A DNA stretch of 64,000 bases from Nitrospirota bacterium (GTDB taxonomy: Bacteria; Nitrospirota; UBA9217). The position numbers and the translations under genes are program-made. Within the stretch, counting starts at the first letter, position 1. Each line of letters starts with the position of its first letter. The stretch spans positions 288,001 through 352,000 of the forward strand of contig CAVWHO010000020.1 in NCBI GenBank assembly GCA_963754875.1, written 5' to 3'. Under the pieces are notes generated by a model. That model was given only the letters and a program-made list of their open reading frames with translations, did no database searches and was not told the DNA's origin. Positions 32,434 through 48,000 of this stretch are shown in pieces.

Positions 32434-32582
32434 CGGCTCTCACACGAGCAATTCATAACGACTCAGGGACTGACACGCCCGGAAGTACATCTGCCGGTTT
32501 GACAGGTGCGCCGGGAAAGAGGGCTGGCAAAGAGCATTCATGCACAGAGATGCTTGTGGCGGCCCTTTGTATTTTATTTCCG

Positions 32583-33380
32583 ATGACGAAAACGATTATC
32601 TTCACCGACCTCGACGGCACGCTGCTGCATCCGAAAAATTACTCCTTTATGGATGCGCTGCCTGCGCTCGAATTGATCCGAGAAAGAGACATCCCGCTCG
32701 TCCTATGCTCCAGCAAGACGAGAGCGGAGATGGAAGTCTACCGGAAGCGGCTGAAGAACAAGCACCCCTTCATCGTGGAAAACGGGGCGGCCCTGTACCT
32801 GCCAATGGGATATTTTATGTTTTTTACGGGGAGCGTGAGAGGCGGGGACTATATTGTAAGCGAATTCGGGAAACCCTATGATGAGATCAGGAAAGAGTTT
32901 GCGGTCCTGCGTGAAAAACTGCACGTCCCGGTAAAGGGCTTCGGCGATATGACCCTCGAGGAAATTTCCGAAGTGACGGGCCTCTCGAAGGACGAGGCCG
33001 CCCTTGCCCGGCAACGGGAGTTCGGCGAACCGTTCATTTTTGAGCAAAGACCTGACGATCGTTTTTTTCAAGCCATTGAAGCACGCGGACTACGGTGGAC
33101 CCAAGGCAGGCTCTATTACCTCATGGGCGACCATGACAAGGGAAAAGCAGTAGGGCTTCTGAAATCATGGTACCAGGCAGAGTATGGTAAACTTATAACT
33201 ATTGGACTCGGCGACGGTTTGAATGATCTGCCGCTGCTCCGGGAAGTGGACCACCCGGTTCTTATCCAGAAGGAGGACGGCAGCTATGACCCGCGCATCG
33301 ATCTTCCCGGCCTCATTAAAGCGGAAGGCATCGGACCCATAGGATGGAACCGTGCGGTACTGGAGTTGCTGAAACAGTGA
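32583..33380 (+). CDS. Glucosyl/mannosyl-3-phosphoglycerate phosphatase (HAD IIB, MpgP/GpgP)
   Basis: FTDLDGTLL, CSSKTRAE, FIVENG, DKGKAV and GLGDGLND motifs. Confidence 0.9.
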   Translation: MTKTIIFTDLDGTLLHPKNYSFMDALPALELIRERDIPLVLCSSKTRAEMEVYRKRLKNKHPFIVENGAALYLPMGYFMFFTGSVRGGDYIVSEFGKPYDEIRKEFAVLREKLHVPVKGFGDMTLEEISEVTGLSKDEAALARQREFGEPFIFEQRPDDRFFQAIEARGLRWTQGRLYYLMGDHDKGKAVGLLKSWYQAEYGKLITIGLGDGLNDLPLLREVDHPVLIQKEDGSYDPRIDLPGLIKAEGIGPIGWNRAVLELLKQ

Positions 33381-34733
33381 CGAGAGAACCTCTGATGGAC
33401 ATCTTCAACGCGGGCCTGGCCGCCGTTGATCCCTATCATGCCGTAATCAGGGAGCTGCGGACTGTAAACGGACAACTATATGCAGGCGGGCGCGTGTACG
33501 AGCCCGCCGCTTTTGACCGCATCATTGTCGTTGGCGCGGGTAAGGCGACAGCGCGCATGGCTGAGGCTGTTGAGGAAACTCTCGGGAGCAGCGTCGACGA
33601 TGGCCTCATCATCGTAAAATATGGTCATACCGGCAGGCTCAGGATTACCGAGCAGATCGAGGCTGGCCATCCGATTCCTGATGAGGCGGGAGTGCGGGGA
33701 ACGGAGAGGATCCTCGAGCTGGTTCGTCGCGCGGACGAGAAAACTCTCGTCATCTGCCTTCTCTCGGGAGGCGGCTCTGCGCTGCTCGTTGCGCCGCTGC
33801 CCGGCATCACGCTGGAAGACAAACAACTGACCACGGACCTGCTTTTGAAAGCCGGCGCGAATATCCGACGAATTGAACACGGTTCGCAAACATCTGTCCG
33901 CGATAAAAGGCGGCAGACTTGCACGGGCGGCTTATCCTGCCATTCTGGTGACGCTGGTCCTTTCCGACGTGATCGGAGACAGACTTGACGTGATCGCGTC
34001 CGGTCCCACTGCGCCGGACAGCACGACCTATGTTGATGCCGACTTCGTGATCTCAAAGTACGGGCTCAAGGCGGCGCTTCCTCCCCGGGTCGCTGCATTT
34101 ATTGAAAGGGGCGTTTCCGGGAAGGAGCCGGAAACAGCCAAGAGCGGAGAGTCCTGTTTCTTGAAATGCAGGAACGTGATCGTCGGCTCGATTGCGCAGG
34201 CCCTTGCTGCGGCAAGCGAAAAGGCCATGGCGCTTGGCTATACTGCCGAAATTTATACCGCTGAGCTCCAGGGCGAGGCCCGTGATGCGGCCCGTAGGTT
34301 GGCACAAACAGCGTTTCGGATCCGGGACAGCCTGAAACCCGGGGAGAGACGCTGCCTTCTCTCCGGCGGGGAGACGACGGTGACGGTCCGAGGAAAAGGA
34401 AAGGGCGGCAGAAACCAGGAACTGGCGCTTGCCTTCGCGGTGGAGCTCGCAGGCAGGGAAGGGATCACTCTGCTTTCCGCCGGCACCGATGGAACGGACG
34501 GTCCAACCGATGCAGCGGGCGCTGTGGTTGACGCATCCACCGTGCAACTGGCGAGAGCATGGGGCATTCATCCGGAGACCTATCTGGGAAACAACGATTC
34601 CTACACGTTTTTTCACGAGGTAGACTCTTTCTGCAATACGAAACATCACGTCATCACGGGACCGACGGGAACGAACGTCATGGACATGCAGATCATTCTC
34701 ACCGAGGCTAAACCGGGCGGAGCGGCAGGGTGA
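33377..34733 (+). pseudogene. MOFRL-family glycerate kinase split by a +1 frameshift (true lesion or sequencing error)
   Basis: N-half has GAGKA, AGHPIPD and LSGGGSAL; C-half has RKHLSAIKGG, SDVIGD, GGETTV, GGRNQE, GTDGTDG and TGTNVMD. Removing one C at 33865-33866 restores GANIDELNTVRKH. Confidence 0.88.
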
Positions 34734-34755
34734 CATACGTGAACCTGAGAGCGGC

Positions 34756-36015
34756 ATGAACAGCATCATTTCCAGAAAAGAGATAGCGGACCAGATCGAG
34801 AGCGTAAAGGCCGCCGATATACTTGTCGGCATCCCGAGCTACAACAATGCCCGGACCATCGGTCACGTCGTGCGGGCAGTCCAGGCGGGCCTCGCCAAAT
34901 ATTTCCCCGATCTGAAATCCGTGATCGTGGATTCCGACGGCGGGTCAACCGACGGGACCACGGAAATCGTACGGAACACGGTTGTCGAGGATTTTCAATC
35001 CATTCTGCTTCATCACCGGGTGTCGCCCGTGTTCAAGATGGCCGTACCCTATCATGGGCTGCCGGGCAAGGGAAGCGCCTTTCGCACGATCTTCGAGATT
35101 GCAGACGCCCTGAACGTCAAGGCCTGCGCCGTGGTGGATTCGGACCTCCGGAGCATAACTCCCGAGTGGATCGAACTTCTTTTGAAACCGGTGCTCGAAG
35201 AAGGGTTCGATTACGTCGCCCCCCTTTACCACCGGCACAAGTACGACGGGACGATTACGAATAGCATCATCTATCCTCTCACCCGGGCGCTCTACGGCAA
35301 GCGCGTACGTCAGCCCATCGGCGGGGACTTTGGTTTTTCCGGTTCCCTCGCGAAACATTATCTCACCCAGGACGTGTGGCAGACGGACGTTGCCCGATAC
35401 GGCATCGATATCTGGATGACCACGGAAGCAATCGCCAATAACTGCAAAATCGCCCAGGCTTTTCTCGGCGCGAAGATACACGATCCGAAAGACCCCGGAT
35501 CGGACCTCTCCTCCATGCTCTACCAGGTAGCTGGCTCGACCTTCGGGCTGATGGAAGCCTACTCCGCGGTCTGGAAAACGGTCAAGGACTCCGGGCCGGT
35601 GCCGACCTTCGGGTTTCAGTACGAGGTGGGGCTCGAGCAGGTGAATGTGGACGTCGGGAGGATGCTCAGGTTCTTTAGGGAAGGGATCCGGAATCTGAAA
35701 GATATCTGGGTCGAGGTCCTCGGGAACGGGGACTGCGGTGAACTGGCAGCATTAAGCTCGCGTCCCGACGAGGAGTTCCGGTTCCCCCTCGGGCTGTGGA
35801 CCCGGATCGTGTACGATTACGCCCTTGCTTATCATAAAAACAAATTTCCCGCCGAACACCTGCTGAAATCGCTGACGCCGCTCTACCTGGGGAAGACCGC
35901 CTCCTTTATCATGGAAGTGCGCGACCTGAGCCAGCGTGATGCGGAGGAAGAAATCGAGAAGCTCTGCATGGAGTTCGAGGAGAACAAGGCGCATTTGATC
36001 AACAATTGGACGTAA
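34756..36015 (+). CDS. GT-A glycosyltransferase; probable single-step glucosylglycerate synthase (Ggs/Mgs-like)
   Basis: VGIPSYNN, DGGSTDGT, GKGSA, DSD, QPIGGDF and YGIDIWMT motifs; context with the phosphatase, glycerate kinase and GpgS-like genes. Confidence 0.7.
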   Translation: MNSIISRKEIADQIESVKAADILVGIPSYNNARTIGHVVRAVQAGLAKYFPDLKSVIVDSDGGSTDGTTEIVRNTVVEDFQSILLHHRVSPVFKMAVPYHGLPGKGSAFRTIFEIADALNVKACAVVDSDLRSITPEWIELLLKPVLEEGFDYVAPLYHRHKYDGTITNSIIYPLTRALYGKRVRQPIGGDFGFSGSLAKHYLTQDVWQTDVARYGIDIWMTTEAIANNCKIAQAFLGAKIHDPKDPGSDLSSMLYQVAGSTFGLMEAYSAVWKTVKDSGPVPTFGFQYEVGLEQVNVDVGRMLRFFREGIRNLKDIWVEVLGNGDCGELAALSSRPDEEFRFPLGLWTRIVYDYALAYHKNKFPAEHLLKSLTPLYLGKTASFIMEVRDLSQRDAEEEIEKLCMEFEENKAHLINNWT

Positions 36016-36031
36016 TCTAAGGGGGTGCACA

Positions 36032-36730
36032 ATGACGGATTTCCTCAATTTGATCCTGGAGCCGCTCAAGGAGGTATTCCAGAAGTTCTTCAAATTTCTT
36101 CCCAACCTGCTCGCGATGCTGATCATCATCCTGATCGGGATCATCGCGGCACGGATCGCCCGGGCCGTGCTGCTCATGTTGCTTAAGGCGATCAACTTTG
36201 ACTCATGGAGCGACCGGATGGGCCTCACGTCGGTGATGAGGAAGGGGGACCTGTGGGCCAAGCCGTCAGCCGCTGTCGGCGCCTTTGTGTTCTGGCTCCT
36301 TATTATCGTCGCGTTCATGGCGGGGTTGAACGCCCTGCAGGTAAGCGCCATCGACAGCCTGACGTCGCAGTTCGTGCTCTACCTTCCGCGGGTCCTTGCG
36401 GCCGTCCTGATTCTCGTCTTTGGATACATCGGGACAGGATTCATCGGCAGGGCGGTCCTCATCTCGGCCGTGAACAGTGGCTATCATTTCGCCAAGCTTT
36501 TTGCCGAGGCGGTCCGGATCCTGCTCGTGGTGCTTTTCGTCGCCATGGCGCTGGAGCAGCTGCAGGTGGCCCCCAATATTGTCGTGGCGGCTTTCTCTAT
36601 CATCTTTGGCGGTATTGTGCTGGCCCTGGCCATCGCCTTCGGCGTAGGCGGCATCGACGCCGCCAAAAAAGTTATAGAGGAAGAGACTGAGAAGAAAGAG
36701 GAAGGGAAACGGGATATAGAACACATTTAA
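36032..36730 (+). CDS. Membrane protein with duplicated conserved TM-helix units (MscS N-terminal/CmpX-like)
   Basis: FLPNLLAM and YLPRVLAA repeated units; ALAIAFGVGG. Confidence 0.75.
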   Translation: MTDFLNLILEPLKEVFQKFFKFLPNLLAMLIIILIGIIAARIARAVLLMLLKAINFDSWSDRMGLTSVMRKGDLWAKPSAAVGAFVFWLLIIVAFMAGLNALQVSAIDSLTSQFVLYLPRVLAAVLILVFGYIGTGFIGRAVLISAVNSGYHFAKLFAEAVRILLVVLFVAMALEQLQVAPNIVVAAFSIIFGGIVLALAIAFGVGGIDAAKKVIEEETEKKEEGKRDIEHI

Positions 36731-36739
36731 GGAGGCGCT

Positions 36740-37948
36740 ATGTCGGATTTTTACCAGACAGGGATCATCACCACGCTCCATGATCTCGGTAAACAGTCCC
36801 TGGAACGACTAGAGCAGGAACTGGGCCGTTATTCCCAAGCCCGGCCAATGGCTCTGGTGTTGCCCGCGCTCTACTCCGAGTTCGAGGGGCCTGCCATGCC
36901 GGGGATCGTGCAGGAGCTTTCGAAGGTGAAATATCTTTGTGAGATCGTGCTCGTCCTGGACAAAGCGTCTGACAAGGAGTTCGAGCACGTCAGGCGTTTC
37001 ATGGCGCCGATCTCCGGAAATGTAAAGGTCATACACAATGACGGCAAACGAGTCACGGAAATCTACGACACCTTCAAACGGAATGGGTTGGATGTCGGCG
37101 AGCGGGGAAAAGGGCGGTCCGCCTGGCTGGCCTACGGGTTTGTGATTGCGGGAGGCACATGCGATGTGATTGCGCTCCACGATTGCGACATCGTGAATTA
37201 CAGCAGGAAGCTTCTCGCCCGGTTGTGCTACCCCGTGGTGAACCCGAACATGGATTATGTCTTCTGCAAGGGATACTACAGCAGGGTCACGAACAAGATG
37301 CATGGCCGCGTCACCCGTCTTCTTGTGACCCCGCTCGTCCGGTCTCTTCAAAAGCTGGGAGGGGAACACCAGTTTCTTCAATTCATCGATAGCTTCCGTT
37401 ACCCTCTCGCTGGCGAGTTCGCGATGACCACAGACGTGGCGAGGGTCAACCGTATACCCTGGGACTGGGGGCTGGAGGTAGGGTCTCTCGCCGAGGTTTA
37501 CCGGAACTATTCTCCGCGCCGCGTGTGCCAGGTGGACATCGCCGAAACCTACGAACATAAGCATCAGATCCTTTCTCCGGAAGATCCGGAAAAGGGATTA
37601 ATGAAGATGACTGTAGATATCTGCAAATCTCTCTTCAGGAACCTGGCATCGGAAGGAGTTGTCTTTTCAGACGGTTTTTTCAAGTCTCTGTCCGTCGCCT
37701 ATCTGCGAAGCGCCGAGGACGCCATCATTAAATACGAGGCCGATGCCGCAATCAACGGTTTGGAGTTCGACCGGCATGAAGAAGCGAAAGCCGTTGAAGC
37801 CTTTACCCGTGCCATTGCTCAAGCAGCAAAGGTTTTTATGGAGGACCCCATGAGCACGCCCCTCATCCCGAACTGGAACAGGGTGACATCGGCAATCCCG
37901 GGTATTCTGGATATGCTGAAAAAGGCGGTGGAAGAAGACAATAAGTAA
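36740..37948 (+). CDS. gpgS: Glucosyl-3-phosphoglycerate synthase-like glycosyltransferase
   Basis: MSDFYQTGIITTLH, GKGRSAW, HDCD, GRVTRL, YPLAGEF, WGLEVG and YEHKHQ motifs. Confidence 0.8.
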   Translation: MSDFYQTGIITTLHDLGKQSLERLEQELGRYSQARPMALVLPALYSEFEGPAMPGIVQELSKVKYLCEIVLVLDKASDKEFEHVRRFMAPISGNVKVIHNDGKRVTEIYDTFKRNGLDVGERGKGRSAWLAYGFVIAGGTCDVIALHDCDIVNYSRKLLARLCYPVVNPNMDYVFCKGYYSRVTNKMHGRVTRLLVTPLVRSLQKLGGEHQFLQFIDSFRYPLAGEFAMTTDVARVNRIPWDWGLEVGSLAEVYRNYSPRRVCQVDIAETYEHKHQILSPEDPEKGLMKMTVDICKSLFRNLASEGVVFSDGFFKSLSVAYLRSAEDAIIKYEADAAINGLEFDRHEEAKAVEAFTRAIAQAAKVFMEDPMSTPLIPNWNRVTSAIPGILDMLKKAVEEDNK

Positions 37949-38180
37949 AGACGAACCGGTCCGTCCTGCAATCCACGATTTTGTGTTTTCTCAATGTATC
38001 GGAAAACAGCTTTCCTTTTTGATGACGATTATTTTTCTGATACTTAACTCCTAAAAAATCCTCTCTGCATTTTTTAAATCCTTACCATATTCGTTGTAGC
38101 ATATCCTGCAGAGAATCGAGCCACAAGCTTCAGTCGAAAAAAAAAGAAAAAAAATCGTTCGAAAAAACAACGAATAAAGC

Positions 38181-38196
38181 TGGCATAGGAGATGCA
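38181..38196 (+). promoter_or_regulatory. Candidate sigma54 (-24/-12) promoter of the copper locus
   Basis: TGGCAT-AGGAG-ATGCA gives exact GG-N10-GC spacing, 90 nt upstream of the first gene, after an A-tract-rich region. Confidence 0.6.
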
Positions 38197-38285
38197 ATAA
38201 TTCAAATGCAAAGGATTTGCAGTAAAATAATTCAGGTGGTGTTCCGCGTTCATGCAGTACTCGTATTTGGGACGGGAGGCTCAAC

Positions 38286-38525
38286 ATGATGCACTGGGGA
38301 AACTGGGGAGGCTACGGATGGGGAATGGGGTTCGGGTGGATATTCATGGTTATCTTCTGGGCACTGGTTATTTTCGGAATTGTCTATATCGTCCAGTCCC
38401 TGACGCGGAGGGCCGGACAGTCAGGGAAGGAAGAGTCTGCCCTCGACATGCTGAAGAAGCGATACGCCAAGGGAGAGATCACCAAAGAAGAATTTGACCG
38501 AATGAAAGACGACCTGCAAAAATGA
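38286..38525 (+). CDS. SHOCT domain membrane protein
   Basis: Gly/Trp/Met-rich N-terminus, one TM, ALDMLKKRYAKGEITKEEF. Confidence 0.9.
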   Translation: MMHWGNWGGYGWGMGFGWIFMVIFWALVIFGIVYIVQSLTRRAGQSGKEESALDMLKKRYAKGEITKEEFDRMKDDLQK

Positions 38526-38536
38526 GGGGAAAAGCC

Positions 38537-38839
38537 ATGAAGATGATAACGGCGATTGTGAGGACAACCAGCCTTCAGCGCGTCATCCAACAGCTCGAAA
38601 AAATCGGCATACGGGGGTTGACGCTTTCCGAGGTCAAGGGTCTTGGCGAGGAAGTGCGGCTGAACAACCCCTATTCCATTCACGACAAGATCGAACTTCT
38701 TATCGCCGACGACAAAGCGGACGAAGCGGCGAACATTATTCTTGAACATGCTGCGACCGGTCTTGCCGGCGACGGTGTTGTAGCCGTCTGGCCCGTGGAT
38801 TACGCGGTCAGGATCAGGTCGAAGGAGCAGTTGATATGA
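38537..38839 (+). CDS. PII-like (GlnB superfamily) protein with a shortened T-loop
   Basis: MKMITAIVR, GLTLSEVKGLG, KIELLI, TGLAGDGVV and AVRIRS motifs. Alternative start at 38522. Confidence 0.88.
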   Translation: MKMITAIVRTTSLQRVIQQLEKIGIRGLTLSEVKGLGEEVRLNNPYSIHDKIELLIADDKADEAANIILEHAATGLAGDGVVAVWPVDYAVRIRSKEQLI

Positions 38840-39240
38840 ACCGGAAAGAACGTCTGCGTCAGGCGCGCGAAAGCAGGGAAGAGGCACTGCTTCTCATGCA
38901 CGAACATATGGGAAATAAGGCTGTGCTCACGAAAATTTATCATGCCATGATGAGTTGTCTTTTCGCGCTTTTTAATATACGGGACATCGGAAAATTGACC
39001 CATGCAGATATCATCGGCCGGTTCGAAGAGGAGTTCGTACACGCGGGGAAAATGGACGAGACGATTCTGGCCGCCCTTCACCGGACGTACGACCTGACCC
39101 ACGAGTGCGACTGCGGGCATATGCCGGTGCCGACGGAAGAAGAAATTACGTCCGCGATGAAGGCCGCGCAGGGACTCATCGCCGCAACTGAAGGATTTTT
39201 GGGGACGGAGGTGACGGTACATGAAAACAGCGCTGTTTAA
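38836..39240 (+). CDS. Orphan HEPN-like (UPF0332-type) protein with HECDCGH motif
   Basis: IYHAMM.CLFAL, THADIIGRFEEEFVHAG and LHRTYDL match the HEPN/UPF0332 pattern; ATGA overlap with the PII-like gene. Confidence 0.7.
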   Translation: MNRKERLRQARESREEALLLMHEHMGNKAVLTKIYHAMMSCLFALFNIRDIGKLTHADIIGRFEEEFVHAGKMDETILAALHRTYDLTHECDCGHMPVPTEEEITSAMKAAQGLIAATEGFLGTEVTVHENSAV

Positions 39241-39436
39241 AGTGGAAAAAACGCTCTGCGCGGAGTGTTCGCTCGCGCTCAGGCGGTTCATAGGCGGCAT
39301 GGACGGCGTCGAGGAGATCGACGTGGAGAGCGGCAAGCTGGCCGTCCGGTACGACGAGGGGACCATCCCCGAGGAAAAGCTGACGAAGCTTGCGAAGGAC
39401 AGCATCGAGCGGCTGGGATACCGGCTGGAGGAATGA
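39221..39436 (+). CDS. Heavy-metal-associated (HMA/CopZ-like) domain protein
   Basis: 71 aa; CAEC motif, DGVEEIDV and IERLGY; overlaps the HEPN-like gene by 20 nt. Confidence 0.82.
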   Translation: MKTALFKVEKTLCAECSLALRRFIGGMDGVEEIDVESGKLAVRYDEGTIPEEKLTKLAKDSIERLGYRLEE

Positions 39437-39458
39437 CCGGGTAAGGAGATGATACGGC

Positions 39459-40541
39459 ATGATACGAGATCCTATCTGTAACATGGAATGTTCCGAAGAC
39501 ACGGCTGTGAAAACCGACTTTCAGGGCGAAACGTACTATTTCTGCTCCGAAGGGTGCCGGGACAGGTTTCTGAAGCGAAGATCTTGCAAGCGTCCCCGCG
39601 ATTCTTATGATCTGATCATCGTCGGCGGCGGCCCCGCAGGCCTCACGGCGGCGGTCTACGCGGCGACGATGAAGATGGACGCCTTTCTCATCGCAAAAGA
39701 CCTGGGCGGCCAGGCCGTGGACAGCACGAAGATCGAGAACTACATGGGTTATGACTTCATCACCGGACCGCAGCTCGTCGAGAAGTTCCAGGAGCAACTC
39801 GTGCGCTCCCACTACATCGACCATGTGATAACCGAGGTCGAGAAGATCGAGGCTGCAGGGGGCGTGTTCCACGTCACGACCTCGGCGCTCACGACCTATA
39901 CCGCTAAGGCGGTGATCGTCACCACCGGCATGGCAAGGCGGACCCTGGGCGTGGAGGGCGAAGAACGGTTCCAGCGGACAGGAGTGTTCTACGGGAATAT
40001 CCAGGACCTGACCTTCGTCCACGACCAGGACGTGGTCGTGGTGGGCGGAGGCAATTCCGCGCTACAGATGGTCGAGAACCTGCACGGCATCGCCGCGAAG
40101 ATCCACATAGTCTCGGCCACGGAGCTGACCGCTGACCCGGCAATCATCGAGCGGGTCCGGTGCCTGGACAACCTGGACATCTACGAAGAGTATAAGGTCG
40201 TGGAGTTCGACGGAAACGCCTCTCTCGAAGGTGTGACGATCAGGAAGATGGCAGGGGAGGAAACGCTATGCCTCCCCGCACATGGCGTGTTCATCTCGAT
40301 CGGGTTCAAGCCGAATTCCGGCCTCGTAACGCATCTGGTGGACGTGAACGACCGGGGCGAGATCATGATCCAGCCGGACTGCTCGACCTCGATGCCTGGC
40401 GTCTTCGCGGCCGGTGACATTACGAACGCCTTCGGCAAAAGGATCATCATCGCTTCGGGAGAAGGTGCCAAGGCGGCCATGGCGGCAAGACAATACCTCC
40501 TTGATCTCAGAAAGAAAATGGCTGCGACCGCCTGCTCGTGA
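39459..40541 (+). CDS. YHS(TRASH)-domain-fused FAD oxidoreductase of the thioredoxin reductase/AhpF fold, lacking the redox CxxC
   Basis: DPICNM...YYFCSEGC (YHS); GGGPAG, IENYMG, GGGNSA and GVFAAGD (TrxR fold); GVFYGNIQD at the position of GVSYCAxCD. Confidence 0.88.
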   Translation: MIRDPICNMECSEDTAVKTDFQGETYYFCSEGCRDRFLKRRSCKRPRDSYDLIIVGGGPAGLTAAVYAATMKMDAFLIAKDLGGQAVDSTKIENYMGYDFITGPQLVEKFQEQLVRSHYIDHVITEVEKIEAAGGVFHVTTSALTTYTAKAVIVTTGMARRTLGVEGEERFQRTGVFYGNIQDLTFVHDQDVVVVGGGNSALQMVENLHGIAAKIHIVSATELTADPAIIERVRCLDNLDIYEEYKVVEFDGNASLEGVTIRKMAGEETLCLPAHGVFISIGFKPNSGLVTHLVDVNDRGEIMIQPDCSTSMPGVFAAGDITNAFGKRIIIASGEGAKAAMAARQYLLDLRKKMAATACS

Positions 40542-40596
40542 TTGTCCCATCGACCAAGATGCCCGCCAATCAATCAGCGAAGGGAGAAATATTGCA

Positions 40597-41133
40597 ATGT
40601 TCATAACGACGGAAACGAACATTATAATAAACAACACTCCCGAAGCAATATGGGATTACGCTTCTGATCCTTCCAACTGGACCTCATCGAATCCCGAAGA
40701 GCATTTCGGGCTCGTTTACTACAACAGCAAGGACAACCGGCCTGCGACCGGCGTGGAATTTCATCAGCGAGAATCCGTGGCCGGCATCTATGCGGATCTG
40801 CGCGGGAGGTTTCTGAATGTCGAGCGGCCCCGCATCGCGGTGTGGTCAGGCACTGCGGTCTATCGCATGCTCGGCGGCCTGATTCGAGTACGGATCCCGG
40901 AAGGCGGCGTCGTCCGCGCGGAACCCGCGGCAAAGGGCACACACCTTTCCCATGACGTGTACATGGATTTTCCCAATTCAGCATGGGGCAGGATGCTTGC
41001 CTGGATATTCAAGGATATTCTGCAAGGCCCCAAGGCCGTGTACAACCATACCTATAAGGAACTGCTGTTCTTCAAGGAACACTTGGAAAAGGAACAACCG
41101 GCGCGAATAAAGGAGAACGCATCGTTCAACTGA
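40597..41133 (+). CDS. SRPBCC/START-like family protein
   Basis: IIINNTPEAIWDYASDPSNW N-terminal signature; GGGAG RBS. Confidence 0.65.
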   Translation: MFITTETNIIINNTPEAIWDYASDPSNWTSSNPEEHFGLVYYNSKDNRPATGVEFHQRESVAGIYADLRGRFLNVERPRIAVWSGTAVYRMLGGLIRVRIPEGGVVRAEPAAKGTHLSHDVYMDFPNSAWGRMLAWIFKDILQGPKAVYNHTYKELLFFKEHLEKEQPARIKENASFN

Positions 41134-41274
41134 GAAGAATATGAGAAAGCGGCAGGATGGGAAGCGGGAAACGGGTATAATAGATATTAATGAAAAGACT
41201 GCAGCGTTCATTCCAAGGAGAGGGAAGAAGACACATGCGCCGACTTTTATTTGACGCAGGAATTGGAGGAAAAC

Positions 41275-41388
41275 ATGACAAGCGAAGAAGACACAATCTA
41301 TACTTGCCCCATGCACCCCGAAGTACGGCAGAAGGGGCCCGGCAAATGCCCGAAATGCGGCATGTCGCTTGAGCCGACAAAAAAATAA
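41275..41388 (+). CDS. 37-aa stand-alone heavy-metal-binding (HMBD) microprotein
   Basis: [45 protein letters not shown]. Absent from the ORF track. Confidence 0.85.
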
Positions 41389-41453
41389 TTACCGCTGCCC
41401 TGTCCCGGTTTCCCGGCTTTTTCCCGGCCCATCTTCGCCGTCAGGAGGAACAC

Positions 41454-43910
41454 ATGAAAGTAAAAGACCCGGTGTGCGGAATGACCATTGAAGACAAGGA
41501 TGCTGCGGGAATGGCATCCTATAAGGACATGACGTACTATTTCTGTTCCTCTTCCTGCCGGGAGAAGTTCGAGAAAGACCCTGCATTGTATGCGGTGAAG
41601 GAAAGTCCGAAAGAACAAGCGCCAGGCTCCTGTCCTGCCTGTGGAAGACCGTTGCTGCCTAATGAGCCCCATAGACACGTTGATTCAAAGGAATATACTT
41701 GCCCCATGCATCCTGAGGTCCGGCAACCCGGCCCGGGCGTGTGTCCGAAGTGCGGCATGGCGCTTGAGCCGGTCGAGCTGGCCGTTGCTTCATCCAAAAC
41801 AGAGTGGACCTGTCCCATGCATCCGGAGGTCGTGCGGGATGAGCCGGGAAGCTGCCCCATCTGCGGCATGGCCCTCGAACCGAAAACGATCACTGCCGAG
41901 GAACAGGAGAACCCGGAACTCATCGACATGACACGACGGCTCAAGATCAGCGTTGTTCTGTCCATCCCCCTGATCTACATCGCCATGGGCGGCCTCATCC
42001 CCGCGATCTCGCCGGAGAAATTCATTCCCCTGAGGATGCTGAAGTGGCTGGAACTGGTCCTAGCGACGCCTGTCGTGCTCTGGGGCGGGTGGCCGTTCTT
42101 CGTGCGCGGGTGGAAATCGATCATTACCTGGAACCCCAACATGTTTACGCTCATCGGCCTCGGTACGGGTGTGGCCTACGGGTACAGCATCGTAGCCGCG
42201 CTCTTCCCGGGGATGTTTCCTCCATCATTCCGCGGAAAAAACGGGGAGGCGGCAACGTATTTTGAAGCTGCCGCCGTTATTACGACCCTCGTGCTTCTGG
42301 GCCAGGTCTTGGAACTGCGGGCCCGGAGCAAGACCGGGGCAGCTATCAAAGCATTGCTCGGTCTAGCTCCGAAGACCGCTCGGCGTGTGCAGGGTGAGAC
42401 GGAAGAGGACGTCCCGCTCGAAAACGTCCACGCTGGCGATCTCCTGCGGGTACGGCCCGGTGAGAAGGTCCCTGTCGATGGGACGGTGACGGAAGGGTCG
42501 AGCAGCGTGGATGAATCCATGATCACCGGGGAACCGATGCCCATGGAAAAACATGCCGGCGACCGCGTTGTCGGCGCTACCGTGAACGGGACCGGCTCAT
42601 TCATCATGCGGGCGGAGAAAGTCGGCTCTGAGACCCTTCTTGCGCAGATTGTGCACATGGTGGCGGATGCCCAGCGGAGCCGTGCGCCGATCCAGAAGCT
42701 TGCGGACATCATCGCCGGATATTTTGTCCAGATAGTCGTCTCAATCGCAATTATAACCTTCATCGTGTGGGCCTGGATCGGACCGGAGCCCCGCTTTGTC
42801 TACGCATTGGTGAATGCCGTGGCAGTCCTGATTATTGCCTGCCCCTGCGCCCTCGGGCTCGCCACGCCTGTATCCATCATGGTCTCCATGGGCAAGGGCG
42901 CTACAGCGGGCGTGCTGTTCAAGAACGCCGAAGCCATCGAACTCATGCGAAAAGTGGATACTCTCGTCGTGGACAAGACCGGTACGCTTACCGTCGGGAA
43001 ACCGAAGCTGAATTCTGTTGCAACGAATGACGGGTTCGACGTGAAAACGCTTCTTCTTTATGCCGCGAGCATCGAGCGAGGGAGCGAACACCCTCTGGCC
43101 GCGGCCATCGTTGCAGGCGCACTCGAAAAGGGCGTGAGCCCGAAGAATGCCGAGTCCTTTCAGTCCAGTACCGGCAAAGGGGTCACCGGTAAGGTTGAAA
43201 GTCACGCTGTCGGACTCGGCAATCGCGCGCTGCTCGACGAGCTGCGCATCGATCCCGGCCACTTATCCGCAAAGGCGGAGGAGATGCGAAAGGACGGCCA
43301 GACGGTGATGTTCCTTGCCGTGGACGGAAAAGCAGCCGGCCTTCTGGGAGTGGCTGATCCGATAAAAGAAACAACGCTTGAGGCCGTGAAACTCCTTCAT
43401 GACGACGGCATCCGTATCGTGATGCTTACTGGCGATAACAAAACCACTGCCGAGACAATAGCGAAAAAGCTCCATATCGATGACGTGGTCGCGGAAGTGC
43501 TGCCGGACCAGAAAGCAGCTGTCGTGAAGCGGTTCCAGAGCGAAGGCCGGTTCGTGGCAATGGCAGGAGACGGGATCAACGACGCTCCCGCTCTCGCGCA
43601 GGCCCAGGTGGGCATCGCCATGGGCACCGGGACGGACGTGGCCATGGAGAGCGCTGGGGTGACGCTCGTGAAAGGCGACCTCCGCGGGATTCTCCGGGCG
43701 CGGCTTCTCTCCCGGGCCACGATGAAGAACATCAAGCAGAACCTGTTCTTCGCCTTTGTGTACAATTCCTTGGGAATCCCCGTTGCAGCGGGAGTACTCT
43801 ACCCATTCTTCGGGATCCTGCTCAGCCCTGTCTTCGCAGCGGCGGCGATGAGTTTCAGCTCCGTGTCAGTCATCGGGAACGCCCTGCGGTTGCGCAGGAC
43901 AAGCATATGA
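41454..43910 (+). CDS. copA: Cu(I)-translocating P1B-type ATPase with N-terminal YHS and two HMBD domains
   Basis: DPVCGM/YYFCS; two TCPMHP...CP.CGM units; CPC, DKTGT, SEHP, GDGIND, YN and MSFSS motifs. Confidence 0.95.
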
Positions 43911-44379: not shown

Positions 44380-45114
44380 ATGATGATCAAAAAGAGCCAT
44401 GTAATGGCACTCTGTTTGGCAGCGGTATTCGTCCTGTACGGAGCGGGCGTACGCGCGGAGCAGACGTCCGGGGCGTGCATAACCTGCCACACCTTTCTCG
44501 GCGGCAAGCTTGCGCAGCCCGTTGCGGAATGGAAAGGTTCGATCCATCAGCAGAACGGCATAACCTGCGATTTCTGTCATGGTGGCGATGCAGGCGTTGA
44601 TGTGGGGACTGTACGGGATCTCGCGGGGCAGGAGTTTGCGGACAGGATGTCGCGCGCAATGTCTAAATCCCAGGGTTTCATCGGCAAGCCTTCCGGAAAA
44701 GCGATGTTCGCCATGTGCTCCAAGTGCCACAGAGATTCCGTCGAACGGTATGCAAAGAGCATCATGGGCAGGTCCTATCTTGAGAACAAGGGCGGGCCCT
44801 CCTGTGTTACCTGCCACCATGCACACCGCAATGCCATGCCCGACGTGCCCAAGGTTTGCGAAAGCTGCCACAAGGATATAGAAGGGTTCGACCAGATCGA
44901 CCCGATGGATGTGACCGAATCAACGGTGAATGCGTTATCAGGCATACGGATAAAGCTCGCCCAGGCGAAAATGATCGGCAAGCAGCCGCCCTTCATACCC
45001 GAGTTTCCCGTGGACCTCGATGCTTTCCAAATAGGGTTCGTCGCATTCGGCGCCGTGCTTGTCCTGTTCTGCATCGGCTATATCGTGTACGTCGTACTGG
45101 AACGGAGGAGATGA
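44380..45114 (+). CDS. Pentaheme cytochrome c with signal peptide and C-terminal membrane anchor
   Basis: Five CxxCH motifs (CITCH, CDFCH, CSKCH, CVTCH, CESCH); hydrophobic C-terminus. Confidence 0.9.
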   Translation: MMIKKSHVMALCLAAVFVLYGAGVRAEQTSGACITCHTFLGGKLAQPVAEWKGSIHQQNGITCDFCHGGDAGVDVGTVRDLAGQEFADRMSRAMSKSQGFIGKPSGKAMFAMCSKCHRDSVERYAKSIMGRSYLENKGGPSCVTCHHAHRNAMPDVPKVCESCHKDIEGFDQIDPMDVTESTVNALSGIRIKLAQAKMIGKQPPFIPEFPVDLDAFQIGFVAFGAVLVLFCIGYIVYVVLERRR

Positions 45115-45115
45115 T

Positions 45116-45379
45116 ATGAGCTTTGAGACCATTCAGACGAAGAGGCCTGCCTATCCAAAAGCCGCCGTGATCGCGGTCCTGGTCCTGTCAATCCTCCTTC
45201 TCGGTGCAGGCGCCGAGTTCGCCTATTTCCTGGTATCGGGCAAGGGAAACGATTACCTCTGGGGCACGCTGCTGGCCGTGGAGTTCCTGATCGCAGGTAT
45301 TGAGATCGTCCTCTTTGCACGCTATTTTGTTCCGTTCAGGGAGGTATCGGAGGACCGTGAGGAGGAGCTGCTATGGTAG
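45116..45379 (+). CDS. Small two-TM protein; probable accessory subunit of the Rieske/cytochrome b complex
   Basis: 87 aa, two hydrophobic segments; 1 nt after the cytochrome c stop and overlapping the Rieske start. Confidence 0.75.
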   Translation: MSFETIQTKRPAYPKAAVIAVLVLSILLLGAGAEFAYFLVSGKGNDYLWGTLLAVEFLIAGIEIVLFARYFVPFREVSEDREEELLW

Positions 45380-45987
45380 ACGGGAACACCGGCAGCAATG
45401 ACAACAAGGAAGGCATCAGCCGGAGAAGGTTCACCCTCGGGATGCTCCTTGCGTCCGTGGCAGGAGCCTTCGGGTCTCTTTTTGCCCTGCTCAAAGTGCT
45501 GGCTCCCGCAAAAAAGGGCGGAGGCTATGCAACGACCATAAAGCCCGGTGATGGGCTTGTCTATGCTCAGGGAGGCAATGCGGGTGCTCCCGTCACGGCT
45601 TCATCGATGAAGCCGGGCGACGCCGTGCTCGCCTATCCCACGGGCAAGTCATCGAATCCGGCAAACCTGGTCCAGTTGATCAAACTGGAGGAGAAGGCAT
45701 TCATACCGCCAACCGACATCGCACTGACGGACCAGGGGTTCGTGGCCTACAGCGCCATCTGCACTCATCTCGGCTGCACCGTCTCCTGGATGGCGAACCG
45801 GGAATCACCCACAGCATCGTTTACGGAATGTTTCTGCCACAACAGCATTTTCAATCCTGCCCAGGGCGCGAAGGTCATGGGCGGGCCTGCACCGATCCCT
45901 CTCGCACAGATTGGAGTGAAGGTGAAACAGGACGGGACGCTTATCTTTACGAGCGATTTCAACGGCCCGATCGGGCCGCAGGTATAA
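45373..45987 (+). CDS. Rieske 2Fe-2S subunit of a quinol:cytochrome c oxidoreductase
   Basis: Tat motif SRRRF plus TM; CTHLGC, CFCHNSIF and GPAPIPL motifs. Confidence 0.93.
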   Translation: MVDGNTGSNDNKEGISRRRFTLGMLLASVAGAFGSLFALLKVLAPAKKGGGYATTIKPGDGLVYAQGGNAGAPVTASSMKPGDAVLAYPTGKSSNPANLVQLIKLEEKAFIPPTDIALTDQGFVAYSAICTHLGCTVSWMANRESPTASFTECFCHNSIFNPAQGAKVMGGPAPIPLAQIGVKVKQDGTLIFTSDFNGPIGPQV

Positions 45988-46004
45988 GAGGCGAGGATTC
46001 TGCC

Positions 46005-47252
46005 ATGGTCTTTAAATGGTTCGATGAACGGCTGGAGCTCAGAAAGTTCAAAGAAAAGTTCCTGAGCAAGACATTCCCGACCCACCCCACGTTCCTGCTC
46101 GGAGAAACGGCGTTGTTCGCCTTCATTACTCTTATCATAACGGGCGTCTTCCTCGGGTTTCTCTATGAGCCTTCGACCACGATGGTTTCTCTCTTCGGTG
46201 CGATGGTTCCGGCAGCCTATGCGAGCGTGGTGAGAATAGACCTGCTCCCCATGGGCCTGATCATCAGACGCATCCACCACTGGTCGGCAATGATAATGAT
46301 CGCCGCCATAATCGCACATCTCCTGCGGGTCTATTTTACGGCGTCCTACCGGAAGCCGCGGGAAATCAACTGGCTCGTGGGGCTCAGCTTGTGGGGTACG
46401 GCCATGGTCGCGGCATTCACCGGCTATTTGCTGCCCTACAGCCAGTTCTCGGTGACTGCCACGTCTATTGCCTACTATATGGCAAAGTCGGTGCCCTGGG
46501 TCGGGGAATGGATGTCCCGACTCCTCTTTGCAGGCGACTTTCCTTCGGACGGGACCGTCCCCCGCTTCTTCTTCATGCATGTCATGCTGATCCCGACGGC
46601 ACTGATCGGTCTCATCGGCGTGCACATGCTCATCCTGATCAAACAAAAACATACGGAGCCCCGGTCCAACAAGGACCGAAAGGAGGCACAGGGCGGGAAG
46701 AGGCTCATCGGCATCCCGATCTGGCCCGAACAGACCGTCATCAGCCTGTCTTTTTTCCTGTTCCTGCTGTTCGTGGTCGTGACTATGGCGACGTATATCC
46801 CCTTGAACCCGATAGAAACGTATGGCCCACCGTCGCCGGGAACACCCGTGATGAGGCCTGACTGGTATTTCCTCGTTGTGTACGGTTTCCTGAAGCTGGT
46901 GCCCGGCGATTTGTCATTTTCCATCCTGGGAGGGAAGATCACGCCCGAAACCATCGGCGGCGTCATCTTTCCCGCAGCCACATTCGTTGCGTATGCATTG
47001 GTCCCTTTCCTCGACCGGTCAAAGGGCCCGCAGTACTATATGGAAAATCCGCTCCACCGGCCCTTCATGACCTCGTTAGGCATTGGGGCCATAGTTTTCC
47101 TCTGCATGATGGTCGTGGCCGGGTACATCGACGTGCTCCATATCACGCCGAGGACCATGACCGTCTCCGCGGTCCTCGCAACGGCGGCGGCGTGGAGCAT
47201 CAGCTACGGCTTACTGCACTGGTACAACAGAAAGAGAGGCGACAATGTCTAA
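46005..47252 (+). CDS. Cytochrome b subunit (unsplit) of a Rieske/cytochrome b complex
   Basis: RRIHHWSA...AHLLR, KPREINW, FTGYLLP, RFFFMHV...GVH and Qo motif PDWY. Confidence 0.94.
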   Translation: MVFKWFDERLELRKFKEKFLSKTFPTHPTFLLGETALFAFITLIITGVFLGFLYEPSTTMVSLFGAMVPAAYASVVRIDLLPMGLIIRRIHHWSAMIMIAAIIAHLLRVYFTASYRKPREINWLVGLSLWGTAMVAAFTGYLLPYSQFSVTATSIAYYMAKSVPWVGEWMSRLLFAGDFPSDGTVPRFFFMHVMLIPTALIGLIGVHMLILIKQKHTEPRSNKDRKEAQGGKRLIGIPIWPEQTVISLSFFLFLLFVVVTMATYIPLNPIETYGPPSPGTPVMRPDWYFLVVYGFLKLVPGDLSFSILGGKITPETIGGVIFPAATFVAYALVPFLDRSKGPQYYMENPLHRPFMTSLGIGAIVFLCMMVVAGYIDVLHITPRTMTVSAVLATAAAWSISYGLLHWYNRKRGDNV

Positions 47253-48000
47253 GCGTGGTCACGCTCTCCTCTGCGCCCTTCTCGCGTGCGGCGCATTCCT
47301 GTTCACCGCAGCCGCAAACGGCGCTGACGGAAATAAAACCTCGAATTCCTGCGTTGCCTGCCATTCCCGGCTTCCGGGAAGCAGTTTCGTGGGCGCAAAG
47401 TCCCACAGCTGGAAGGGATCGATACACCAGAAGCACGGAGTGACCTGCGACAAATGCCATAAAGGCGACCCCCGCGCTTCCGGGCAGAAGGAGGCCCATG
47501 CAGGGGTCCTCGCCTCCAGCGATCCCCAAAGCTCAGTTTACTACAAGAACATCCCGTCAACCTGCGGCCAGTGCCACGGGGCCGAATTCTATAAATTCAC
47601 CCAGAGCTTGCATTACAAGAGGCTCGAATCGGAAGGAAAGGGGCCCGAATGCGTAACGTGCCACGGATCGATGGTCACCGGTATCTTAACGCCTGACACC
47701 ATCGCGGCCGTGTGTGAGCGGTGCCACAATGCGCGGATAGGCGTCTTTCCCTATGTGCCGCAAAAAGCGAAGGCTGTTTTGCTTTTATTGAAGGAAAGCA
47801 ATGCACTTCTCGATGCAAACGTGAAGCTTAATCGTTCTGCCAGCGGCACCGAAAGGGCAGGAGACCTGCGTGATGCCCGGACCTCGCTGCACTCTGCCAT
47901 GCTCGACTGGCACAAATTCGATCTCGACACGATCATTGCCGACTTGCAGGATTTTTACAATTCTATGAATAAACGGTCTCCGGGGAACATGCACCAGTAG
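47245..48000 (+). CDS. Periplasmic pentaheme cytochrome c
   Basis: Signal peptide; CVACH, CDKCH, CGQCH, CVTCH and CERCH motifs. Confidence 0.9.
   Translation: MSKRGHALLCALLACGAFLFTAAANGADGNKTSNSCVACHSRLPGSSFVGAKSHSWKGSIHQKHGVTCDKCHKGDPRASGQKEAHAGVLASSDPQSSVYYKNIPSTCGQCHGAEFYKFTQSLHYKRLESEGKGPECVTCHGSMVTGILTPDTIAAVCERCHNARIGVFPYVPQKAKAVLLLLKESNALLDANVKLNRSASGTERAGDLRDARTSLHSAMLDWHKFDLDTIIADLQDFYNSMNKRSPGNMHQ

Follow-up and report, generated by a model that had tools for sequence, protein, structure and literature searches.

A probable copper-export cluster of a Nitrospirota bacterium with a cysteine-bearing HEPN protein, a CxxC-less flavoprotein and a predicted sigma-54 promoter

The described systems closest to the locus considered here are the copZ-copA operons and the curA operon of Myxococcus xanthus, which, according to PMC3707914, has putative sigma-54 promoters and is controlled by CorSR, a kinase with a sigma-54-dependent regulator. 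We analysed a 64,000-nucleotide (nt) stretch of a Nitrospirota assembly (GCA_963754875.1, contig CAVWHO010000020.1, positions 288,001 to 352,000; this whole stretch is referred to as the window), in which eight co-directional open reading frames (ORFs) occupy the + strand between 38286 and 43910. The host genome, G000, is 4.3 Mb in size and 90% complete, and the named relatives of its proteins mostly carry Nitrospirota labels. The eight genes are an unusually full draw from a shuffled pool of copper-island genes around a standard Cu(I) CopA, and we consider it probable that together they make up a copper-export cluster whose parts are interchangeable, likely transcribed by sigma-54 RNA polymerase. 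The features are as follows.

38095..38110, no strand assigned: imperfect palindrome TGTAGCATATCCTGCA, predicted upstream activator site, 86 nt 5' of the sigma-54 site
38181..38196, + strand: predicted sigma-54 -24/-12 promoter, TGGCAT-N5-ATGCA, 105 nt 5' of the SHOCT start
38286..38525, + strand: SHOCT-domain membrane protein, 79 amino acids (aa), PF09851 above cut-off
38537..38839, + strand: PII-like protein, 100 aa, PF00543 at 62 bits
38836..39240, + strand: HEPN-T (UPF0332) protein, 134 aa, predicted metal binder, RxxxDY replaced by THECDCGHMP
39221..39436, + strand: HMA protein, CopZ-like, 71 aa, CxxC followed by a conserved ALRRF helix
39459..40541, + strand: fusion of a YHS domain and a TrxR/AhpF-type flavoprotein, 360 aa, GNIQ at the CxxC position
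40597..41133, + strand: SRPBCC-like protein, 178 aa, optional, directly 3' of the flavoprotein, PF10604 below cut-off
41275..41388, + strand: stand-alone HMBD ORF, 37 aa, GGAGG ribosome site, PF19335 at 54 bits
41454..43910, + strand: P1B-1 Cu(I) ATPase CopA, 818 aa, N-terminal YHS and two HMBD, TIGR01511 at 605 bits against a cut-off of 397

The intergenic distances are, in order, 11, -4, -20, 22, 55, 141 and 65 nt, and the first five genes thus overlap or lie at most 22 nt apart, as an earlier reading made from the letters alone (the sequence-only reading) had described. The metal-ligand motifs on which that reading drew (HECDCGH, CAEC, the YHS cysteines and CPMH..CPKC) are all directly visible in the translations. 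Three of the Pfam labels fall just under their curated cut-offs (HEPN 21.9 versus 22, HMA 22.1 versus 24.8 and SRPBCC 23.9 versus 27.4); the HEPN label is backed by a fold search and the HMA label by a profile search of solved structures.

The ATPase anchors the comparison with copZ-copA operons, with which the locus shares the CopA motifs, membership of TIGR01511 and a CxxC-bearing HMA protein related to CopA domains and CopZ, while differing in its five extra genes and in the lack of CsoR and CopY from the genome. CopA carries CPC463, DKTGT507, YN770 and MSFSS799, which places it among the P1B-1 Cu(I) ATPases, and from established knowledge a CopA with the CPC/YN/MxxS signature, which the sequence-only reading had recognized, is very probably a Cu(I) exporter. 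In the HMA protein, C13 and C16 of the CxxC motif are invariant in 16 of 16 sequences and ALRRF, a conserved surface helix, is kept. Its closest solved relatives in the profile search are CopA domains and CopZ, yet it scores far below the cut-offs of the NCBIfam CopZ models (26.7 versus 91 and 17.4 versus 95) and lacks the GMT/H that usually precedes CxxC in CopZ. It often stands alone or behind YtkA and is likely a local copper chaperone. The stand-alone HMBD shares 82% identity with the first of the two HMBDs in the following CopA, and because no second stand-alone copy occurs among the fetched loci it is possibly a local duplicate.

The PII-like, SHOCT and SRPBCC proteins are best regarded as accessory. 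The T-loop of the PII-like protein is about 9 residues shorter than usual, the K90 position is hydrophobic and His49 is invariant; with 54 bits against a cut-off of 181 in the NCBIfam GlnB/GlnK model it falls outside canonical PII, and in a quick tree with long branches it forms its own clade, apart from the CusA-adjacent PII of locus L034. The sequence-only reading knew of no characterised cop operon that also has a PII-like protein, a HEPN-fold protein and a disulfide-less TrxR homologue; PII-like genes beside metal exporters are already on record, in the form of PII-NG with the czcABC heavy-metal efflux genes, as cited in PMC7726332. Both cases have a gene of the PII fold within a cluster for heavy-metal efflux; in the present one the exporter beside it is a P-type ATPase. 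By clustering, SHOCT is present in 11 of 39 loci of the HEPN clade described below and in 7 of 20 flavoprotein loci, while an SRPBCC gene directly follows the flavoprotein gene in L121 and L122 and, as a fragment, in L123 (3/20 loci).

The third product is related to HEPN-T proteins of the AF0298 type (PF05168; PMC3710099, main text). Its predicted structure (predicted local distance difference test score 90) retrieves HEPN proteins in all of the top four Foldseek matches, the best being AF0298 (2hsb; template-modelling score 0.72, E 1.1e-3, just above the 0.001 line of the tool), and matches in the ESM Atlas are to HEPN or unnamed clusters only. It differs from HEPN-T and MNT-HEPN proteins in having Thr for the basic residue and C-D-C-x-H-M for D-Y, in the lack of an MNT partner and in its metal-transport context. 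The THECDCxHMP stretch aligns to the RxxxDY motif, which is found in 103 of 150 distant relatives, and CxCxH is present in 112 of 120 close homologues. Among the 95 of the 120 listed homologues that make up the alignment, T88, E90, C91, C93, M96, P97, P99 and H56 are invariant; hence the HEPN-T Arg of RxxxDY is lost, whereas the alternative His of the helix 2-3 insert (H56), a HEPN-T feature defined in the main text of PMC3710099, is retained. The word 'cysteine' is absent from that main text, and a literature search, largely confined to papers outside subscription and without the supplements of PMC3710099, found no paper on a cysteine-bearing HEPN protein.

Methionine together with cysteine and histidine is a Cu(I)-type ligand set. 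The conservation of these residues suggests that the former HEPN nuclease site is now a soft-metal site and, because M96 is invariant, one most likely for Cu(I) by general ligand preference. We give about even chances to the specific proposal that the protein is no longer an RNase, and that C91, C93, H95 and M96 would form with H36, H56 and H89 a soft-metal site acting as a Cu(I) buffer. A complex prediction for the HEPN dimer with HMA scored 0.21 against a mark of 0.32 and was not used either way.

The genomic context of the clade supports a role in metal handling. After removal of seven duplicates (L002, L036, L041, L043, L044, L050 and L060) the clade comprises 39 loci; those from metagenomes were found through patterns that contain the motif, and the HMMER-based genome matches all have CxC too. 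A metal-handling gene lies within 1.5 kb in 26 of the 39 (17 copper-type, 8 FeoB and 1 MgtE/Nramp), compared with 0 of 25 control HEPN loci. With three MNT queries, no adjacent MNT gene was found in any of the 39, whereas five of five canonical RxxxDY loci have one upstream, and on this ground a function as one half of a toxin-antitoxin pair was rejected. A quick tree separates three kinds of HEPN protein in the class, namely canonical proteins with an upstream MNT, R.P.CxC housekeeping proteins and the THECDC clade, whose support of 84-85 is too low to establish a single origin. The R.P.CxC proteins form a second MNT-less HEPN-T clade, common throughout the class and mostly encoded between DUF2147 and a radical SAM gene (G000 C10:107591-107989; L010, L013, L014, L016, L018-L020, L023-L025, L027, L029 and L031). 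A recurrent arrangement elsewhere consists of a CBM48 gene, the THECDC HEPN gene, feoB, fur, an ARMT1-like gene and further genes (L052, L053, L055, L057, L059, L062, L086 and L088). The plasmid collection holds three distant HEPN matches, at 26-30% identity.

The alternative that survives best, which we nevertheless regard as unlikely, is that the cysteine-bearing HEPN protein has a general role, as a sensor or scaffold for metals or Fe-S clusters. In a dimer, zinc or an Fe-S cluster would be held by the two CxC loops, and the gene would have been taken up equally by loci for copper, iron and magnesium/manganese transport. This would account for the position of the gene directly 5' of feoB (8 of 39 loci) or mgtE-Nramp (one locus), as well as for the housekeeping R.P.CxC clade (DUF2147/radical SAM), in which CxC has arisen without a copper context. 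However, copper-type neighbours are twice as frequent (17/39) and belong to several families, whereas the feoB loci come from one lineage, and the invariance of Met96 also speaks against it.

The fifth product joins an N-terminal YHS domain to a flavoprotein that resembles low-molecular-weight TrxR and the C-terminal module of AhpF in its flavin adenine dinucleotide (FAD) and NAD(P)H domains, in GGGNSA and in the Asp after the CxxC position, and differs from them in the YHS domain and in the loss of both CxxC and HRRxxxR. GNIQ stands where TrxR has CATC, and the sequence-only reading had already noticed that CxxC is missing. The best 120 homologues (65-100% identity) have G-N/S-I/V-Q/E/H at this position and retain the following Asp, and none of them has CxxC; C7, C29 and C33 of the YHS domain and C43 of the linker are kept in 110-119 of the 120. 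GGGNSA is retained and HRRxxxR is replaced by VSxTELTAD, so that either NADH or NADPH may be the nucleotide used. The score in TIGR01292 is 252 against a cut-off of 343. TrxR-like FNRs (IruO, FNR1/2 and Bdr/YpdA) have also lost CxxC, and membership of this group was considered and rejected, as all 35 solved matches at E<=1e-30 and all listed fold matches are TrxR or AhpF. With TrxR and AhpF rather than FNRs as the closest relatives in sequence and structure, CxxC was likely lost independently in this flavoprotein.

A P1B ATPase lies within 8 kb of the flavoprotein gene in 22 of 25 genome loci, the window excluded (in 20 the ATPase core itself is found, at most 5.3 kb away, and in 2 a CopA N-terminus truncated by the edge of the stretch), against a background in which such vicinity covers 1.7% of G000 bases. 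The sequence-only reading had proposed a neighbourhood search as its check, and the homologues of neither family proved to be scattered: the flavoprotein mostly keeps to P1B ATPases and the HEPN protein mostly to metal-handling genes. According to PMC10294844 and PMC8564101, CxxC-less TrxR-fold enzymes reduce flavodoxins, heme oxygenases and other heme proteins, Fe-siderophores and bacillithiol disulfide, that is, largely non-disulfide acceptors, and the simplest assumption for the present protein is therefore a reduction at the YHS head that involves no dithiol. We tentatively propose that electrons would pass from NAD(P)H via FAD to a metal or to oxidised cysteines at the YHS head or on a partner, with no disulfide step. 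That HMA serves as a dedicated CxxC donor in trans was rejected, as HMA is present in 82 genomes and missing from 9 of the 25 flavoprotein genomes. No flavoprotein match at 1e-60 was present in the plasmid collection, and the literature search, within the same scope, found no paper on a YHS-fused CxxC-less reductase. Five of 20 loci (L121, L127, L132, L135 and L138) have a second FAD-dependent oxidoreductase, of about 373 aa, close to the flavoprotein. Other YHS fusions in the islands are with a histidine kinase (L058:6076-6948), a trehalose-synthase-like glycosyltransferase (L091:12528-13925) and an unknown protein (L129:7502-8224).

TGGCAT-N5-ATGCA, with GG at -24 and GC at -12, is the only match to its search pattern in the window, and its first base, 38181, coincides with the point at which the sequence-only reading let the cluster begin. 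A looser sigma-54 pattern occurs 5' of 9 of 39 island-heading genes, compared with 2.4% of random 300-mers. All eight promoters with enough flank have, 86-109 nt upstream, a palindrome with the consensus TGTAGGA-NN-TCCTACA at 1-4 mismatches, a motif that was read from those same eight sites and that 4% of random windows reach at four mismatches or fewer. The palindrome paired with the sigma-54 pattern gives 25 matches in 20 of 64 genomes of the class, versus 2 for a reversed control. Sixteen of the paired matches have the full palindrome, and of the eight that had not been used in the derivation five are copper-linked (they head YtkA, or lie inside a CopA island or some 8 kb away from one), one is unclear and two are not copper-linked.

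The sequence-only reading had found no CsoR, CueR or CopY gene in the window, and this extends to the genome as assembled: at 90% completeness, G000 yielded no member of the CsoR or CopY/BlaI families, and its five MerR genes all lie on other contigs, none of them with a CueR-like cysteine pair when inspected by eye. The predicted sigma-54 promoter with its palindrome may account for this absence and is the preferable explanation of it. RpoN and many sigma-54 activators are present in G000. It is probable, judging from these sites, that an NtrC-type activator binds 38095-38110 and would fire the sigma-54 promoter under copper stress. A possible, though doubtful, identity for this activator is the membrane kinase with NtrC-type regulator encoded at G000 C13:117514-120041; such a pair sits inside the copper island of genome G033 (L203), the kinase sensor domain has matches in 55 of the 64 genomes, and a YtkA gene lies 5' in 8 of 25 loci. 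Autoregulation of this operon via the same promoter was rejected (0/25 loci). The M. xanthus curA operon is likewise a copper operon, encodes a CopA that carries a YHS domain and has promoters of putative sigma-54 type; it differs in that the accessory proteins here are mostly cytoplasmic and the regulator, a candidate only, lies outside the operon.

Further occurrences of the promoter elements were seen. At G000 C17:105649 the palindrome and a sigma-54-like site precede a gene for a Met/Gly/Thr-rich lipoprotein of about 600 aa with no Pfam match, which is also found in L001, L033 and the C15 island, and near 222900 of G000 C8 they precede a broken YtkA-HMA pair. The same promoter pair is associated with a 122-aa Cys-rich helical ORF behind YtkA (L178:93-458, - strand; no Pfam match at 1e-3), which by eye we take to resemble a Csp-type copper storage protein.

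Within the same 401 genomes of the phylum, matches were obtained in 17 with the HEPN profile, in 25 with the flavoprotein and in 82 with the HMA profile; HEPN and flavoprotein co-occur in 9. The sequence-only reading had proposed that folds from other pathways were repurposed into a relay which would capture, reduce or sense metal and hand it to CopA. The repurposing of folds is supported by the family-wide, conserved loss of ancestral catalytic motifs in the HEPN protein and the flavoprotein, whereas a single, fixed relay of eight products is improbable. Overlapping genes, the recurring adjacency of HEPN and HMA (the window and 7 other loci) and of HMA directly 5' of the flavoprotein (the window and 4 others), and the conserved HMA surface helix would fit such a relay, yet the full set of eight is repeated in no other fetched locus. 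A genome with all three core families is rare (4 of 401), and HMA is present without HEPN or the flavoprotein in 59 of its 82 genomes. Instead, the loci vary in gene order and content: L122 reads SHOCT-PII-HMA-flavoprotein-SRPBCC-CopA without HEPN, which is cleanly missing from the otherwise similar operons L120-L122; L033, which lacks the flavoprotein, reads SHOCT-PII-HEPN-HMA-CopA; in L001 the first five genes are present with no CopA close by; and L046 has HMA in first position. Recurring island neighbours include YtkA, DUF5676, PEMT/ICMT, DUF302, multicopper oxidase, RND efflux, ArsR and CsoR.

It is similarly improbable that copper is handled by CopA and HMA alone, the unusual genes being passengers, or serving against oxidative stress in general, in an island prone to insertions, as might be suggested by neighbours such as MsrAB, rubrerythrin, desulfoferrodoxin, peroxiredoxin-like and CMD genes and by genome G013, which has HMA alone at the same site 3' of a glucosyl-phosphoglycerate synthase gene, because both families have gained strongly conserved metal-ligand features (the YHS fusion and CxCxHM) and the flavoprotein remains near ATPases across many gene orders.

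The interpretation that we favour remains a copper-export cluster with interchangeable parts, in which cytoplasmic Cu(I) would be held by HMA, HMBD and the cysteine-bearing HEPN protein, and the metal or its cysteine ligands would be kept reduced by the YHS flavoprotein. Several observations weigh against this interpretation. For 13 of the 39 HEPN loci there is no metal gene in the adjoining 1.5 kb, many of these contigs being short, and for four with long flanks (L084, L085, L090 and L093) there is none within 5 kb; the metal-gene queries were drawn from HEPN neighbourhoods themselves, which favours the count of 26. The eight loci preceding feoB, or feoB and fur, are not copper loci and represent a single lineage, and the separate housekeeping HEPN clade has CxC without a metal context. 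Three of the 25 flavoprotein loci (L131, L145 and L147) have no ATPase within reach. Little Cu(II) is expected in the cytoplasm of an anaerobe, which weakens the reductase step. The promoter pair precedes only 3 of 20 flavoprotein loci, at a loose setting, and a few HEPN loci; it is found in none of L082-L093, is missing from many loci of the islands, particularly beyond the class, and precedes the candidate kinase-regulator operon in 0 of 25 loci. The candidate kinase gene of G000 is frameshifted in the assembly. Finally, related genomes are not independent of each other.

In the surroundings of the cluster, genes for a multiheme cytochrome c, a small membrane protein, a Rieske protein, a cytochrome b and a further multiheme cytochrome c follow directly after copA (44380-48000, + strand). 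This module also lies 3' of CopA in L216 and between the flavoprotein and CopA in L120, and may be part of the copper island. Upstream, at 32499-37948 of the window, lie genes for a HAD phosphatase, a split kinase-like protein, two glycosyltransferase-like proteins and a membrane protein, with a frameshift splitting 33344-34733. A second, frameshifted copA lies at G000 C15:28609-35225 together with cytochrome c and Met-rich genes. Some of these frameshifts (the C15 copA, window 33344-34733 and the kinase at C13:117514) may be assembly errors.

The locus type, a copper-efflux island, is known; what is new is the presence within it of two uncharacterised families that have consistently lost the chemistry of their ancestors, together with a readable sigma-54 promoter. 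The boldest form of the argument, to which we give a rather low probability, is that an RNase-toxin fold has been domesticated to a Cys/His/Met Cu(I) site and joined by a disulfide-less YHS flavoenzyme acting as a cytoplasmic copper reductase, within a so far undescribed copper regulon under sigma-54 in anaerobic Nitrospirota, with TGTAGGA-NN-TCCTACA as its legible operator. Copper handling is poorly known in anaerobes that lack CsoR, CueR and CopY, and the predicted sigma-54 promoter and operator define a candidate copper regulon across a class. The flavoprotein ties a TrxR-derived enzyme to copper pumps in a form for which the dithiol-disulfide exchange mechanism is impossible, and a HEPN clade that binds metal instead of acting as a nuclease would, if true, mean that a widespread toxin fold has been put to a new use.

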